Positions 3,098-63,714 of a stretch of DNA of 64,000 nucleotides are shown one piece after another. This DNA is from a virus. How positions within the stretch are numbered: position 1 is the stretch's first letter; each line of letters begins with the position of its first letter. The stretch lies in IMG/VR virus record IMGVR_UViG_3300023301_001182, positions 1 through 64,000 of that record; one strand, given 5' to 3'. Below the pieces are notes generated by a model. It did not search any database and was not told the origin of the DNA. It was given only the letters and a program-made list of their open reading frames with translations. Position numbers and translations under genes: made by a program.

Positions 3098-3412
3098 ATG
3101 AAACAACAAATGCAATATTATATAATAGCGGGTGCATTTCTATTCCTAACAGCAATAGGTAGAACGCTAGATAAACTAAGTAAAGGAGAAATATCAGGAA
3201 AATTAGCATTTACAGTTTCATTTCTTTTTTCAATAATAGGTGGTATAATAGCTGGAATGATAGCAAGTGTATATATAGAAACTATACAGCTACAATGGAT
3301 TTTTATTGCCGCAGGTGCTTGGATGGGGGAGAGAGTACTTGATGTAGTTGCTGATGCATTAGAAGATAAGATTACTTTAATATTTAAAAAACAAAATAAA
3401 GATGAAAAATAA
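3098..3412 (+). CDS. Putative holin
   Basis: 104 aa with three hydrophobic segments and a charged C-terminus; upstream of the endolysin. Confidence 0.65.
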   Translation: MKQQMQYYIIAGAFLFLTAIGRTLDKLSKGEISGKLAFTVSFLFSIIGGIIAGMIASVYIETIQLQWIFIAAGAWMGERVLDVVADALEDKITLIFKKQNKDEK

Positions 3413-57895: not shown

Positions 57896-58225
57896 TTATT
57901 CTTCTTTTGTAAAGTTTTTATCTTTAAACCTATCATCTAGGTCTTTTCTAAATAAATACATATAAGATAAGAACATTGCATTACACATTATATGTCCTAC
58001 GTGGTCTAAACCACTTTCCTTATCTTTATCTACTCCATCTGAAAAGGAATTTATATGTCGTTGCATGCTATCTAAAGTTTCAGAATATTTTAGACCTTTT
58101 CTCCAATTATGGTCATCATATTTTTTAGCACCAAACATTAGTACTCTAACTAAAGGTTCTAATGCTTTCCAACTAACTAACCCCCATCTTAATTTCCCTT
58201 CATTCTTTCTTTCTCCTAATTCCAT
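57896..58225 (-). CDS. dATP/dGTP diphosphohydrolase-domain protein (DUF5664-like)
   Basis: K..GK.RW.L..VL.FGAKKY...NWRKG..RH..D.ESGL.H..H..CN. Confidence 0.8.
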   Translation of the reverse strand: MELGERKNEGKLRWGLVSWKALEPLVRVLMFGAKKYDDHNWRKGLKYSETLDSMQRHINSFSDGVDKDKESGLDHVGHIMCNAMFLSYMYLFRKDLDDRFKDKNFTKEE

Positions 58226-58227
58226 AT

Positions 58228-61200
58228 TTACCTTCCTGTTGTAGACTCAATGAAATTATAAACCTCTTTTATGTTAGCATTATCATAAGGTAAAGGTAGT
58301 TCTCTAAAAAAGTTTACAGCTCCATCAAAGAATAGTGGACAAACTGTGCCACCACCACCACTTCTACCACCAAGTATTTCTAAAAACCTTATATTATCTC
58401 TAAAAAAGGTTATATCATATCCTTGGTACTCTCTTATCTCGTGTCTAAACGGACTAAATAGTCCTATTATAACATTAGCATCCCGTTGAGTTAATTTGCA
58501 ATCGCCAAGACCATCTAATGAAGGTTTTAATCGACCTACCTTCATATTCTCGACTGATTCTTGTGCACTTGCTTGTTGTTGAATAACAACTGGAATGTAG
58601 TTATATTTATTCCTGAGTCTTAAAAGATAATCTGAAGACAATTTAACAATAGAAGCATGTAAGCTCATTTTGTGTCCATTTTCTTCTTCTGTAGAAATTA
58701 AACCTACATGGTCAATAAAGACCATAACATACTCTTCTGGATCATTAGGTTCATAATAATCATCAATCTCTGTTAATGTACCTTTGATATTGATAGTTTT
58801 TTTGTACTGTGTCCCATTGGCTTGTGCATAGGAACGGACAAATTTATAAATACCTGTAGGATTTCTAATATCATCAATGAACTCTACTATTTCTTCAATC
58901 TTCTTGAAATATGGTTCATATTTTGCTATTAACTCTAAAATTTTAATATCTAATATTTTATCTGCTTTAGTACTTCTAAGGTCAGTAGGAGGAATTCTTA
59001 CCCCTTCTTTAACATATATAATGTTAGAGAATGCTGATAACATTTTCTCCTCCTTAGACATCTCTAAAGTAAAATAAAATATCTTCAATCTAATGTTTAA
59101 AGATTTATCAATTACTTGTTGAATAGTATTATACAAAAATAGCCAATCAGCTATTTGAGTTTTCAATTTTGTTATTTCTAACGATTACTAAAATATTTCT
59201 TATTTTCAAAAAATTTTTTAAGTTCTATACCAAATTCATCAACTCCTCTACGTGGAGCATATAAACGCCAGTAACTTCCTGTGTAATTAGTAGTAGAATC
59301 TCTAACTCTATATACTTGTTTGTTTATATCATTACAAAACATACCAACTAAATTATCAAGTGACATTACAGTATTAAAAAACTCTTCATATGTGGCTTTA
59401 GGATAATAATTTAAACAGATCCTGTATAAATCTCCCATAGATCTATTGCAATCCTTTCCACATTGTTTTCTGTTACTTTTAAGATGATATGTTTTATTAC
59501 TGTATATATATCTTGATAATAATAATCTTACAAAATTCTTAAAAACTTTAGAATAAATTTTATGTTTTGTAATGCCAGCTTTTGAAAGGTATAATATTCC
59601 TCTTCCTCTTAATTTTATTTCTATTTTATTAAATTTTTGTTTCATATTTTAGAAATTTAGAAAGTTAAGTCATTTCTACTTAACTCTATAATTTAATATC
59701 AATTTTTAATGAATCAAATAGTTTATCAATATAAGCAGCATCATATTTAGTATCCTTTGTACTTCTACCATAGTTAAATGTAACAGAATTTACATGACCT
59801 GGTATAATTTTACTAGCCCATATAGATATAGATGGCTTTTGACATTTCTCATAAAAGCTATAAAATATTACTTTATTAATACCACCACATACTCTTGCTC
59901 TGAATTTAGTTTCATATAAAGCTTGTAATACCATCTTTTCAGTTGCTCCTTTTTGTTTATAATATTTAAACAAATCATCAAAGCTTCTTCTATCATAGAT
60001 CCCTTTGTCTTTTTTAAATAGAGTACTTCTAAAATACCTCTTATGATTTACTTTATTTAATAAATCTTTTTTTAACTCCTTTAAATTCATCTTTAATTAA
60101 TTTTTATTTTTATAGTTCGGACTATCTCATCAACCTATCTATGTATTACACATTTACAGTCATAATCATGATGTCCTTTTAATGCATCATTATAACATTC
60201 TGTACAACATTGTATACCTTCTGTTATAATTGTTGCAATATTATCACAATCTGTACATAGTATAGGTTGCCCATTGTTAGTCTCTACGTCCTTTTGAATT
60301 TTTGATATTGTATTATCTATAGTTGATTGAAATCTATCATCACAACTATATCCAGCTTTATAATAAGCTAAACCTTTCATAATATTTTCAATATTTCTTT
60401 TATTCAACTGTGACACGGGATTGCCTTCTTTTTTTTCAGTTTCTACACCGTTTTGTAAAGCAAGTCTAACTCCTACTGAAACTCCTAGTTTATAATCATC
60501 CCACCATTTAGGACTTCCTAAAAATTTAGTTAATCGTTTTACTTCTTTCTCAAGTGATAGCATAGGATTGCTTTCTGTTTTTTCCATTATAAATCATCTC
60601 TAGTTAAGTTCTTAATATACATCTGTAAATCTCCATTAGGATAACCTACCCTTCTTGCAAAGGTATGTTTGTATTCAAATCCTAATGTTTTTAGATTGGA
60701 TCTTAATAAGTGCTCATTTGGAGATACTATTACAAAGACAGCTGTCTGGCCTCTACCATATGTATAATCTACTTCTTTATTAATAAGCATTTCCATAGTA
60801 AGCCGTTTTAACTTAGCTTTAAATTCATCTAAAGTTGTGTCATCTCCTACATTATTTAATTGACATAATGCACAGCATGCTGTTGTTGTTTTTTCCATTA
60901 TAATGTTTTTTTAAAAAAGGGTTTCCCCGTTAGCTAATTATTTTTAACAAATACTTTTTTAACCAAGACTTAGAAGTAAATTCTCCAAGTTTAATTAATT
61001 GTTCAATTGTTAAAATTCCTTTTTTCTTTCTTTTTAATATTATTTCTTTTGCTATTCCATCTTGTTTAAATCTTGCAACATAGCCATCTCTATTTCTGAT
61101 TTGATATTTAGTAAAATATGTTGCAAAATATTGGAAGCCATAACCATAACCTGTTGGTATTGCTACACAAGATATTAATATAAAATATTTTGCTAAATTT

Positions 61201-62938
61201 TCAACATATAATTTGGATGTTACATTTATTGAAAATGTTACTTTCTGAGCTGCATGTAATACTTTAGCCACTCTTTCTATAGCTTTAGGTGTACACAGTG
61301 ATGCAAAACTTGATACTTGATCTAAGTAACAATGTTTACAATTACCAATTGCGTCTTGGTAAAAAATTGTACTATAATCTGAAAGATACACTTTATATAC
61401 ATCTGTGTCACACATATTTGGAATACAGTCTTCTAGTCTTATATTTATCATTTTTTCTTAATTAACCCCCATTTCTGGGATTCTGAGTTCAATTACATAT
61501 TACTATGCAAAGGGGCAAAATCTACCTACTTTCGTTTATATTCCACATAAGACGTAACTCTTATATGCGTTTATGATAAATAGTATATATGGTAGGTCTA
61601 TCCTCAATAACTTTTAAGATATTGGTTATTTTCCACGAGTACTGTACCTGCTTATACTTCTTAATACTATTTACTTTAACTGCTATATATTTCTATATAG
61701 ACTGGACTATATCTTCATCTACTTGAGATGGCTTCCATTTCCAATACCATTAACTTGTATTGTACGTGCTCTATTGCACTAGTCTCTGAACGTTACTATT
61801 TCTAGTCTTCGCTGCTGATTGTCTTATATAAAAAAGACACTATATTAGTGTCTTAATTATACTTAGAGTTTCCAGCAATTAAAAAGCTAATCATCTAGAT
61901 GTCACCATCTAGCGTAGCAATTAAATTGTTATTAATAAATATTGTTTTTTAAATTTTTGTTGTACTTTTATTGCATAACTTATACTAGGTCTGTGTGTTT
62001 TAAAATATTCAGCACATTCTTTTAAAGAATTAAATTCCATAATTAATTCTCTTGTACTATAATCTAATACTTGGACTTTCTTATATAAATATTCCATATT
62101 TTTAGTATCTTTTTTATAAGGAGATAATATTTCTTTATAATCATATGACCATAAATAATTACCTGCTTTTTTATAAGTACCATTAATATATCTACATATA
62201 GATGATTTAGAAATATCACACTCAGATGAAGCTTCATTAAGGCTATTATATTTACATATATATTCTCCATTTAAAGAGTACTTATATATAACTTTAGTAG
62301 CTAATATTATTTCACCTATTTTAATTTTGTATTTCCTTGTATTAGATTGTTTAAGTCTAGACTCTTTAGGAAGGATATTTCTATCTACTTCTAAAGTAAT
62401 ATTATATAAAGGTTTTAATATATCTATATAAAATTGTTCTCTACTTATTAACTTATTTTCTTCACATTTTTCTAATATATAAAAATTAAAGTCATTCTCT
62501 GTATTATTATTCCAAGAATTTTGTAATAATATATTACAATGCTTTAATTTTTTTAATGTATAAAAATGATTATATAACCTAGTTCTAATGTTTTTAGAAC
62601 TACCTATATATTGTTTACCATTTTTAATATTTATTATGCAGTAAATACCACTGCAGTTATAATCTTTTGTTATTTTCTTCATAATTTATATATTTATACA
62701 AATATACGAAATTAAATTCAATAATCCTAATTTATAACTGCTAATTTTATAACTTTATTTATTATAACTAATTACTATTCGCTGTAATTAAATAATATTT
62801 ACCTTGCTCAATGCCAGGTAATTCATTTTCAAACCGAGGTAACCCCCATGGTATACAATTAATTTGCCCATTAAGTAACCTCTGTCTCTTTTCTATGATA
62901 TTGTCATAGACTCTTGTATATAAACTTGTTTCTTTCAT
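58228..62938 (-). CDS. DnaB-like replicative helicase, spliced from three exons (62938-62774, 61532-61524, 59163-58228; ~369 aa)
   Basis: Spliced product reads IPWGLPRF..GIEQGKYYLITANS|KVG|KTQIAD..YFTLEMS..FIDHVGL..QQQ..DAN..GLF. Exons of 165, 9 and 936 nt keep the frame. Confidence 0.88.
59178..59645 (-). CDS. Intron-borne basic hypothetical protein (paralog of 59686-60090)
   Basis: RSMGDLY..Y.KAT..FCNDINKQVY motif. Confidence 0.6.
   Translation of the reverse strand: MKQKFNKIEIKLRGRGILYLSKAGITKHKIYSKVFKNFVRLLLSRYIYSNKTYHLKSNRKQCGKDCNRSMGDLYRICLNYYPKATYEEFFNTVMSLDNLVGMFCNDINKQVYRVRDSTTNYTGSYWRLYAPRRGVDEFGIELKKFFENKKYFSNR
59686..60090 (-). CDS. Intron-borne basic hypothetical protein
   Basis: RRSFDDLF..Y..GAT..VCGGINKVIF motif. 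Confidence 0.6.
   Translation of the reverse strand: MNLKELKKDLLNKVNHKRYFRSTLFKKDKGIYDRRSFDDLFKYYKQKGATEKMVLQALYETKFRARVCGGINKVIFYSFYEKCQKPSISIWASKIIPGHVNSVTFNYGRSTKDTKYDAAYIDKLFDSLKIDIKL
60135..60587 (-). CDS. Intron-borne ORF overlapping the ribozyme core; C-terminal Cys-rich (CxxC..CxxC) region
   Basis: EGNPV is encoded by the Q element and DVET by the R element; CTDC..CCTEC lies in the P8 loop. Confidence 0.5.
   Translation of the reverse strand: MEKTESNPMLSLEKEVKRLTKFLGSPKWWDDYKLGVSVGVRLALQNGVETEKKEGNPVSQLNKRNIENIMKGLAYYKAGYSCDDRFQSTIDNTISKIQKDVETNNGQPILCTDCDNIATIITEGIQCCTECYNDALKGHHDYDCKCVIHR
60587..60898 (-). CDS. Intron-borne small protein, possibly GNAT-like fold
   Basis: ACCALCQL; AVFVIVSPNE....LKTLGF resembles the GNAT C-terminal motif. 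Confidence 0.5.
   Translation of the reverse strand: MEKTTTACCALCQLNNVGDDTTLDEFKAKLKRLTMEMLINKEVDYTYGRGQTAVFVIVSPNEHLLRSNLKTLGFEYKHTFARRVGYPNGDLQMYIKNLTRDDL
60930..61451 (-). CDS. Intron-borne hypothetical protein
   Basis: 173 aa; GNCKHCYL; the stop TAA abuts the intron P4 element (AGC TAA CGGGGAA). Confidence 0.55.
   Translation of the reverse strand: MINIRLEDCIPNMCDTDVYKVYLSDYSTIFYQDAIGNCKHCYLDQVSSFASLCTPKAIERVAKVLHAAQKVTFSINVTSKLYVENLAKYFILISCVAIPTGYGYGFQYFATYFTKYQIRNRDGYVARFKQDGIAKEIILKRKKKGILTIEQLIKLGEFTSKSWLKKYLLKIIS
61524..61532 (-). other. 9-nt micro-exon (AAA GTA GGT = K-V-G) of the helicase Walker A motif
   Basis: Preceded by the terminal G of intron 1 (61533), ends in U, and supplies exactly the residues missing between ANS and KT. 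Confidence 0.85.
61921..62682 (-). CDS. Intron-encoded GIY-YIG homing endonuclease with NUMOD1-like repeats
   Basis: SGIYCI.N..NGKQYIGSS....R, REQFYID, YN; C-terminal Y.SL.EA / FNSLKECAEYF repeats. Confidence 0.9.
   Translation of the reverse strand: MKKITKDYNCSGIYCIINIKNGKQYIGSSKNIRTRLYNHFYTLKKLKHCNILLQNSWNNNTENDFNFYILEKCEENKLISREQFYIDILKPLYNITLEVDRNILPKESRLKQSNTRKYKIKIGEIILATKVIYKYSLNGEYICKYNSLNEASSECDISKSSICRYINGTYKKAGNYLWSYDYKEILSPYKKDTKNMEYLYKKVQVLDYSTRELIMEFNSLKECAEYFKTHRPSISYAIKVQQKFKKQYLLITI
62699..62730 (-). promoter_or_regulatory. Intron-internal Bacteroidota-type promoter for the GIY-YIG gene
   Basis: - strand TTAG-N20-TATATTTG. Confidence 0.75.
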
Positions 62939-62940
62939 AT

Positions 62941-63549
62941 TTAATTTAATTTTGAAGTCCATTCATCTCTACTAGGTAATCCTATCTCCTCTATATAAGC
63001 AGATAATCTGGATGACTCTTCACGATTGTTCTCTTGTTTAAATATAAAATAATCAGCACGTTGTAAGAATCTATAATCTCCATGTAAGCTGTCAATATAA
63101 ATATCAACTGCTTTTAGGATATCATCGAATGTATATTTAGAGTTTTCTTTCATCCATCTTGTAAGTTTAATTTCACATGACTTTGGACTACCCATAGAAC
63201 CAGCTTTTAACCCTTTCCATTTGTCTCTAAATAATTCAATTCTACCATCAATCTCTTGATTAATAGTTCTTTGTGATCTTTTAGTAGTCTTCTTAGAAGG
63301 CTCTAAAGCATCAGGTATTTCTACTGTTAAAAACTCTAATAGTTCTACAGATTTCTCCCTTAATATATATTTTGTCTTTTCTTCATCTGTTATAATTTTT
63401 ATTAGTTTTTCTCTTTGTAATTTTTGTAAGTCTATATTAGCTATATTAACTTCTTTCTCTTCAAATAAGTTATATAGAAATAAGAGATCTTCTACAGAAA
63501 TATTGAAATCATTTAGTACAGTAAAATTTAGTACTAAGTTTTTTCTCAT
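62941..63549 (-). CDS. Hypothetical protein, possible replication initiator/helicase loader
   Basis: Directly upstream of the helicase; winged-helix-like N-terminus and helical C-terminal domain (F...W..; FLQRADYFIFK). Confidence 0.4.
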   Translation of the reverse strand: MRKNLVLNFTVLNDFNISVEDLLFLYNLFEEKEVNIANIDLQKLQREKLIKIITDEEKTKYILREKSVELLEFLTVEIPDALEPSKKTTKRSQRTINQEIDGRIELFRDKWKGLKAGSMGSPKSCEIKLTRWMKENSKYTFDDILKAVDIYIDSLHGDYRFLQRADYFIFKQENNREESSRLSAYIEEIGLPSRDEWTSKLN

Positions 63550-63558
63550 TCAATATAT

Positions 63559-63714
63559 TTAAAATTCATTTAATTTTTCGTCTATTAATGATTCAGATAA
63601 TTCTTTATCGATCATACCATCACCTTTACAAAATCTGCATAGTTTAAGATACTTTCCTTTAATTACTTCTTCACCAACCCCTAGACAATTGGGGCATTCT
63701 ACTAGTTTACTCAT
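63559..63714 (-). CDS. Small DnaJ-type zinc-finger protein (51 aa)
   Basis: MSKLVECPNCLGVG..LCRFCKGDG contains two CxxCxGxG repeats. Confidence 0.65.
   Translation of the reverse strand: MSKLVECPNCLGVGEEVIKGKYLKLCRFCKGDGMIDKELSESLIDEKLNEF

Follow-up and report, generated by a model that had tools for sequence, protein, structure and literature searches.

The DnaB-like helicase gene of a crAss-like phage is interrupted within its ATP-binding motif by two group I introns that lie only 9 bases apart. The gene is part of a 64,000-nt stretch of DNA (positions 1 to 64,000 of the IMG/VR virus record IMGVR_UViG_3300023301_001182, hereafter the window), and all features of the split helicase are on the minus strand. 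We consider it very probable that this is a single helicase gene with two independent, tandem, IA2-like group I introns inserted 9 bp apart in Walker A, and that removing both would yield an intact helicase. The 9 nt between the introns are a micro-exon that encodes Lys-Val-Gly. The initial annotation of this DNA had proposed just such a micro-exon, and the codons, the flanking introns and the homologues all bear it out. The gene is laid out as follows.

62774–62938, minus strand: helicase exon 1, 165 nt, 55 codons (M-K-E-T...G-K-Y-Y-L-I-T-A-N-S)
61533–62773, minus strand: intron 1, group I, IA2-like, 1241 nt, terminal G at 61533
61524–61532, minus strand: micro-exon AAAGTAGGT, Lys-Val-Gly, the middle of Walker A; preceded by G 61533, last base T
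59164–61523, minus strand: intron 2, group I, 2360 nt, terminal G at 59164, with five open reading frames (ORFs) in peripheral loops
58228–59163, minus strand: helicase exon 3, 936 nt, 311 codons plus stop; preceded by G 59164 and opening AAA ACT CAA (K-T-Q-I-A-D-W)

Exons and predicted helicase product

Exon 1 ends in GCG AAT AGT (62782–62774) and is followed by AAT and the stop codon TAG. The coordinates and codons of the initial annotation stand, apart from the final exon base, a T, which is at 62774, one base off the position implied there. The start codon is best placed at the ATG at 62938, which agrees with homologues better than an upstream ATG at 62962, and exon 1 is 81% identical to residues 2–53 of the uninterrupted homologue P0063. 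Joining the 165, 9 and 936 nt in silico gives a single open frame of 369 codons from the ATG at 62938 (368 codons when counted from 62935). Across the junctions the joined exons read ...ITANSKVGKTQIADW..., a residue-for-residue match to uninterrupted homologues. Ten such homologues all read G-K-Y-Y-L-x-[TS]-A-N-[SQ]-K-V-G-K-T-Q-I-[AT]-D, and an alignment to them, the check that the initial annotation had suggested for the spliced protein, gave 68–74% identity from end to end with no gap at the junction. The introns thus split Walker A into ANS, KVG and KTQ, where intron-less homologues read ANSKVGKTQ, and the P-loop of the spliced frame, A-N-S-K-V-G-K-T, satisfies the Walker A pattern [AG]x4GK[ST].

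The identity of the gene is clear from exon 3, which matches PHROG 19 (DnaB-like helicase), gave no Pfam match when searched alone, and has Crassvirales helicases as its nearest annotated relatives. It has 2465 homologues; the uninterrupted ones (368–374 aa) carry Pfam PF03796 (DnaB_C), and many others, only 311–320 aa long and starting (M/L)KTQ, are exon-3-only gene calls. Gene callers likewise give the helicase of this phage as two ‘hypothetical proteins’ of 64 and 312 aa. No other DnaB-like gene was found in the 92,163-bp virus record, which is 91% complete, so helicase function would depend on splicing.

The micro-exon in its context

By itself, the 9-mer is not significant. It occurs once on the minus strand between the two large exons, and about 0.3–0.5 K-V-G-coding 9-mers are expected by chance in a single-stranded gap of 3.6 kb; on both strands of the 64-kb window, AARGTNGG occurs 19 times, against 11.6 expected from shuffles. 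The context carries the case: the 9-mer gains its significance because it is flanked by the conserved 3′ end of one group I intron and the conserved 5′ end of another, and in relatives the 5′ end of that second intron directly adjoins the same three codons within an unbroken exon. About 17 relatives have an exon 1 that continues without a break through ...AAT AGT AAA GTG GGT (...AGTAAAGTGGGT), followed by an intron that opens AGATTTTGCCCC..., the same start that follows the micro-exon in the window. The introns of these relatives also end like intron 2 of the window (...AACAAAATTG), after which comes AAAAC.

A pattern scan of IMG/VR for the 3′ end of intron 1, a G, codons for K-[VI]-G and the 5′ end of intron 2 recovered the whole arrangement elsewhere. 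Seven distinct twin-intron loci are now known to us (the window, L020, L032, L036, L056, L057 and L059), so that homologues of intron 1 occupy the same site in six other distinct loci. Their micro-exons read AAAGTAGGT, AAAGTGGGT, AAAGTTGGT or AAAATTGGT and encode K-[VI]-G in every case; they differ either in the third base of the Val codon or by having Ile in place of Val, a substitution that uninterrupted homologues show too. The initial annotation would have been overturned had homologous helicases lacked a three-residue xxG segment here; they have one, which reads K-V-G or K-I-G.

Intron 1 is an IA2-like ribozyme with a homing endonuclease gene

Both intervening sequences belong to group I, as first proposed; for intron 1 this follows from an Rfam match within the window and from covariation. 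Its elements are listed below.

61921–62682, minus strand: GIY-YIG + NUMOD homing endonuclease gene, 253 aa, in the P1 loop
61915–61918, minus strand: internal guide GCUA, predicted to pair with exon-1 UAGU, the last four exon nucleotides
61683–61944, minus strand: ribozyme core P2–P9 with P7.1/P7.2; P7 is GACUA 61784–61780 / UAGUC 61709–61705
61544–61567, minus strand: terminal hairpin (P9.2-like), 10 nt before the 3′ splice site

The core matches the full RF00028 model of Rfam with 81.5 bits (E 2.6e-21; gathering threshold 50 bits) at 61944–61683, in 262 nt after the endonuclease gene. A compact homologue of intron 1 in L057, 302 nt long and free of ORFs, scores 99.5 bits in the same model. 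An Rfam scan of the surrounding 5.6 kb (58000–63600, E up to 10) missed intron 1, and this null result is best read as a filter miss, since a 446-nt sub-region submitted alone gives the 81.5 bits.

The secondary structure was tested in an alignment of seven sequences and comprised P2, P3, P4, P5, P6/6a, P7, P7.1, P7.2, P8 and P9 together with the P3/P7 pseudoknot. Across its 60 pairs, 96.4% of cells are paired and 24 pairs have changed on both sides, compared with 27–43% paired cells and one or two such pairs in slid controls. Extra helices P7.1 and P7.2 between P7 and P3′ are a criterion of subgroup IA; in intron 1, P7.1 is paired in 87.5% of cells and P7.2 in 100%, with three covarying pairs, and by its predicted fold intron 1 is an IA2-like group I intron. 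The terminal hairpin adds 9 bp, with 98% of cells paired and four compensatory pairs across the seven loci.

At the 5′ splice site, the last four nucleotides of exon 1 would pair with the guide, including the splice-site U opposite a guide G, and AAUU beside the guide (61922–61919) can pair with the first four intron bases, lengthening P1. The guide lies directly 3′ of the endonuclease stop codon, which places the endonuclease gene in the P1 loop. The same P1 fold was recovered in L057, and GCTACG, which immediately precedes P2, is invariant in the seven loci.

The product of the intron 1 ORF is a putative GIY-YIG homing endonuclease with a NUMOD-type DNA-binding module, as judged by Pfam matches to PF01541 (42.6 bits, 7.8e-11) and PF07453 (37.1 bits, 3.4e-9), both above cut-offs, and by a PHROG match to homing endonuclease (6e-20). 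Seventeen nucleotides upstream of its start codon is TATATTTG (62699–62706, minus strand), in agreement with TAnnTTTG, the −7 promoter motif of Bacteroidota; the block TTTCGTAT.TTTGTATA before the gene is kept in L036 and L020. These elements suggest that the endonuclease may have its own promoter within intron 1. The ORF content of intron 1 varies: in L032 (3565–3786), a small ORF in the 3′ loop (73 aa, with CxxC motifs) replaces the GIY-YIG gene, and in L020 (about 3257–3400) a second small ORF stands in the 3′ loop alongside it.

Intron 2 is a group I intron loaded with ORFs

The group I membership of intron 2 is supported by a compact homologue and by covariation in P1, P2, P3 and P8. Its elements are as follows.

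61514–61520, minus strand: internal guide UUUUGCC; GCC pairs with micro-exon GGU (P1), UUUU with exon-3 AAAA (P10)
61493–61510, minus strand: P2 hairpin, 7 bp with a GUAA loop; 100% of cells paired, four compensatory pairs
61487–61484 and 60273–60270, minus strand: P3, CUCA / UGGG
60930–60926 and 60419–60415, minus strand: P4, ACGGG / CCCGU
60282–60278 and 60124–60120, minus strand: P7, GACUA / UAGUC
60269–60263 and 60137–60131, minus strand: P8, 7 bp
60120–60930, minus strand: scattered core, with piecewise homology to the cores of relatives
59178–61451, minus strand: five ORFs of 173 aa (60930–61451), 103 aa (60587–60898), 150 aa (60135–60587), 134 aa (59686–60090) and 155 aa (59178–59645)

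Rfam gave no match for intron 2 within the window, including the fragment 60085–60445, because ORFs split the core. In L024, the intron at the same site is only 761 nt long and has a contiguous core that scores 67.1 bits (E 3.7e-17), and the pieces of the window intron align to it. The guide, 5′-UUUUGCC-3′, is complementary to the ligated junction GGU and AAAA, which is the classical arrangement of P1 and P10. P1 consists of GGU/GCC with a U.G pair in all seven twin loci and is 4 bp long in most relatives; one locus shows a compensatory U-A as the fourth pair. P1, P2, P3 and P8 all show compensatory changes among relatives, and P7 is invariant. For P3, pairings read by eye include CUCA/UGGG, UUCC/GGAA, UUCA/UGAA and CUCA/UGAG, and P4 is ACGGG/CCCGU here and ACGGU/ACCGU in a sister subfamily. 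P7.1 and P7.2 of intron 2 were seen by eye in L024 only.

The ORFs make intron 2 a cargo carrier. At the same site, relatives (introns of L008–L059) hold one to six ORFs drawn, as a mosaic, from about 20 families. The five ORFs of the window gave no match in Pfam or PHROG, and a PDB profile search of the intron 2 ORFs found nothing; among ten representative intron ORFs from relatives, the sole recognisable family, in L040 and L051, is a LAGLIDADG endonuclease. The proteins of 134 and 155 aa look like members of a single family, with 13–30% identity by alignment, a shared R-S-F-x-D-L motif and one conserved Cys. This family often provides the last ORF of the intron and is the sole ORF of the minimal L024 intron; its members may be homing or maturase-type proteins that have so far escaped recognition. 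For the 155-aa member, the AlphaFold model is mediocre (pLDDT 67), and Foldseek returned only weak winged-helix-like matches (E >= 0.04). The 150-aa ORF stays open through the 3′ strand of P4, P6, the 5′ strand of P7, the 3′ strand of P3 and the P8 loop, ending 7 nt before the 3′ strand of P7, so that the same RNA is coding sequence and ribozyme core.

A cultured crAss-like phage, Cellulophaga phage phi14:2 (L080, NC_021806.1, 1717–5442), has intron 2 singly. Its RefSeq record leaves the helicase intron unannotated: g024 is exon 1 with read-through, g025–g028 are intron ORFs, and g029, called ‘DnaB’, is truncated and starts 33 codons inside exon 3.

Predicted splicing and competing explanations

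Splicing, with its order and efficiency, and the insertion history we infer from the DNA. In the intron 1 ribozyme, GCUA would pair with UAGU of exon 1, and the intron would end at G61533; in the intron 2 ribozyme, GCC would pair with GGU of the micro-exon and UUUU with AAAA of exon 3, and the intron would end at G59164. With both introns out, the mRNA would encode the 369-aa helicase with its P-loop, A-N-S-K-V-G-K-T, intact.

The micro-exon would thus serve both introns, as the initial annotation had foreseen: its last three nucleotides, GGU, pair with the guide GCC of intron 2, and its first two can pair with UU beside the guide of intron 1. From this double duty the same annotation had drawn either ordered splicing or a risk of exon skipping; a fixed order does not follow from the pairings. 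Intron 1 uses at most the first 2 nt of the micro-exon and intron 2 the last 3 nt (4 in most relatives); these recognition elements sit at opposite ends without overlap, so the pairings impose no order of splicing. Transcription may nevertheless favour one: intron 1 and the micro-exon would be transcribed first, and the polymerase would have to travel about 1.4 kb beyond the micro-exon to reach the 3′ strand of P7 of intron 2 and about 2.4 kb to reach the 3′ splice site of that intron. Intron 1 would thus likely be removed first.

Several features weigh against this account. In intron 1, P1 and P7 are supported by conservation and not by covariation: the predicted P1 pairs are invariant, and P4 and P7 never vary across the loci. 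P10 of this intron has no more than 2 bp (AA/UU in the window), and some relatives lack it. In intron 2 of the window, P1 is only 3 bp, a GTA codon having introduced an A.C mismatch, and P6 is short and altered by a 3-nt deletion relative to relatives, with an alternative pairing of 3–5 bp remaining. ORF insertions have spread the core over 1.4 kb, beyond the reach of an Rfam match in the window, and the intron could fold poorly or need a protein helper. Finally, the sequencing runs listed as holding this sequence were three in number, all of them DNA metagenomes (from hypersaline lake and lake water), with no RNA run among them.

The rival that survives best is that the 3.6-kb gap leaves in a single piece, always or in most cases, by exon skipping or through a hybrid ribozyme that combines a 5′ half from intron 1 with a 3′ half from intron 2, so that ANS is joined to KTQ and the 9-mer is a relic. 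We regard this as improbable. Skipping of short exons between group I introns has been described for Twort orf142 (23 nt) and Coxiella 23S rRNA (34 nt), according to PMC10136302, and such precedents suggest that it may be a risk here as well. The two introns also share an identical P7 (GACUA/UAGUC), and the micro-exon and exon 3 both start with AAA, which makes them indistinguishable to the weak P10 of intron 1. Skipping would, as the initial annotation had noted, stay in frame, as the arithmetic of 9 nt dictates; by the codons involved it would delete K-V-G and with it the P-loop glycine, and the product would presumably be ATPase-dead, in a genome that has no other helicase. Against removal as one unit, the 9 nt keep K-[VI]-G in seven distinct loci, with changes in third positions, and the guide GCC of intron 2 fits AGU of exon 1 at two positions only. 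A hybrid ribozyme would lack P3, as GCUUUUU of intron 1 cannot pair with UGGG of intron 2; it is unlikely because the introns differ in P3 and in their P4 helices, though P7 is identical.

Still less probable is a decaying helicase pseudogene broken by mobile DNA, in which the KVG 9-mer would be a chance match or a leftover and nothing would be spliced. The chance expectation given above would permit such a 9-mer, and intron 2 in this phage is laden with ORFs and weakened in P1 and P6. Yet exon 1 is intact, exon 3 retains an intact 311-codon frame that is 88% identical to its nearest relatives, the same split layout with conserved exons recurs in many phages, the ribozyme helices retain compensatory changes, and this is the sole replicative helicase of a genome that is 91% complete.

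A nested twintron or an intein-type element acting at the protein level is very improbable: the two elements are almost adjacent and the P-loop of DnaB is a known intein site (PMC4760082), but the helicase product requires the intervening 9 nt, which belong to the exon in relatives that have intron 2 alone, and stop codons abound in the helicase frame of the gap, beginning with AAT TAG right after exon 1. In a twintron, one intron would lie inside the other; the sequence between these two is exon. Nor was a Hint/intein domain detected.

Insertion history and association of the two introns

The distribution of the introns among relatives points to an order of arrival. In a tree of the helicases, the twin loci are scattered, each being sister to a locus with intron 2 only (window/L029, L036/L038, L056/L053 and L032/L040). 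Comparison of filled and empty sites (window with L029, L036 with L038) places intron 1 exactly between AGT and AAA. Intron 2, at its site between GGT and AAA, is widespread in this phage group and most likely came first; intron 1, at its site between AGT and AAA, would then have entered an allele already bearing intron 2, cutting off three codons as the micro-exon.

Of 24 distinct alleles with intron 2, 7 also have intron 1, and not one of 58 distinct alleles (72 loci) with KVG joined to KTQ has it (Fisher's exact p = 9e-5, phylogeny not corrected for); among the alleles compared, intron 1 never occurred without intron 2. A scan of viral contigs for the 3′ end of intron 1 joined to KVGKT gave 17 matches, all of them unrelated chance matches, and a looser pattern (the 3′ end of intron 1 plus KVG) gave no related locus among the 120 metagenome loci in the matches listed. 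Among the 120 best exon-1-like ORFs of a larger protein collection, 18 end after ANS, 9 after ANSKV and 81 after ANSKVG; the pattern left 12 unclassified, about 10 of which show a KVG or KIG tail by eye. In the 18 protein clusters ending after ANS, exon 1 stops at site 1.

The simplest reading of the association is linkage. At a spacing of 9 bp, recombination can hardly separate the introns, and the pair would be inherited, and would probably have spread, as one block. Alternatively, the target site of the GIY-YIG enzyme may include the first bases of intron 2. A stronger proposal, which we hold to be possible but doubtful, is that the two introns and the 9-nt micro-exon act as a single composite mobile element on which intron 1 rides as a dependent passenger, existing and spreading only in, or together with, intron 2. 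The route to it would be either an enzyme that recognises a site including the first intron 2 bases, or 9 bp of homology too short for recombination. Less likely, phages might exploit a fraction of transcripts from which the micro-exon has been skipped: these would encode helicase subunits without a P-loop, which would poison hexamers, for instance when co-infecting phages compete.

A third intron site lies within the same 9 nt, after AAG GT and before a 3′ exon reading A GGA AAA, 4 nt upstream of site 2 (L044 at about 3498, L052 at about 2692 and L047 at about 4925); the 9 protein clusters that end after ANSKV fit this site. The ends of the L044 intron resemble those of intron 2, as if it had moved to the nearest GGU once the GGT codon became GGA.

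Comparison with known systems

The closest phage counterpart is orf142 of Staphylococcus phage Twort, where, of three group I introns, the second and third are separated by an exon of 23 nt (Landthaler & Shub 1999, recounted in PMC10136302). Both are phage genes in which tandem IA2-type introns surround a very short internal exon. The present exon differs in being 9 rather than 23 nt long, in lying inside a catalytic motif and in a layout that recurs in several phage lineages; P3 and P4 also set the two introns here apart, in contrast to the Twort pair, which that source calls highly similar, and splicing in our case is a prediction. In the 23S rRNA gene of Coxiella burnetii, two group I introns flank a 34-nt exon, and skipping was detected by RT-PCR (Hicks et al. 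2011, cited in the same source). The likeness lies in two group I introns, of different subgroups there, with a short exon between them; the gene there encodes rRNA, with a longer exon and no reading frame to preserve.

In mitochondria, group I introns are already known to flank micro-exons. Placozoan cox1 has a 1-nt micro-exon between two group IB introns, verified by RNA-seq (PMC5436844). There, too, a second group I intron inserted beside an existing one produced a micro-exon that restores a conserved residue; that case is organellar and involves 1 nt, in contrast to the phage host, the 9 nt and the intron 1 that still has its endonuclease gene here.

The introns td, nrdB and sunY of phage T4 belong to subgroup IA2 and carry GIY-YIG or related endonucleases. 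They share with the present introns the core signature of P7 GACUA/UAGUC, J8/7 GAUAUAGUC, P7.1/P7.2 and GNRA-capped P2 and P9, as well as an endonuclease ORF in a peripheral loop. T4 has one intron with a single ORF per gene, in contrast to the GIY-YIG ORF in a P1 loop and the neighbouring intron with five ORFs described here.

Several introns within one phage gene are known (PMC11878797), and the core genes of crAss-like phages are rich in group I introns (Yutin et al. 2021, PMC7886860). The latter phages are of the same virus order; they come from the gut, and the relatives of the present phage are environmental (marine and lake). The inteins of DnaB at insertion point b, in the P-loop (PMC4760082), are likewise self-splicing mobile elements and occupy this same motif in this helicase family, with splicing at the level of protein there and, by prediction, of RNA here. 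A literature search, incomplete in coverage, found no earlier description of a DnaB intron or micro-exon in crAss-like phages. Nor did it turn up a report of a 9-nt exon in a phage gene, of one placed inside Walker A, of its recurrence across lineages, of the strict co-occurrence of the introns or of three insertion sites within 9 nt.

Implications

For annotation, the consequence is that hundreds of database entries are exon fragments. The micro-exon is shorter than those of the phage and bacterial cases cited above, and it lies in the motif where a splicing error would cost most, because the phage has no second helicase. The whole of it is barely longer than the two recognition elements that it supplies, and the arrangement is a recurrent natural test of the smallest spacing at which two group I ribozymes still pick the right splice sites. 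The P-loop codons are also a crowded target, with three intron sites within 9 nt, in a motif that the inteins of bacterial DnaB hit as well. Within it, an intron never seen without its neighbour offers a concrete case for linkage or dependence between selfish elements.

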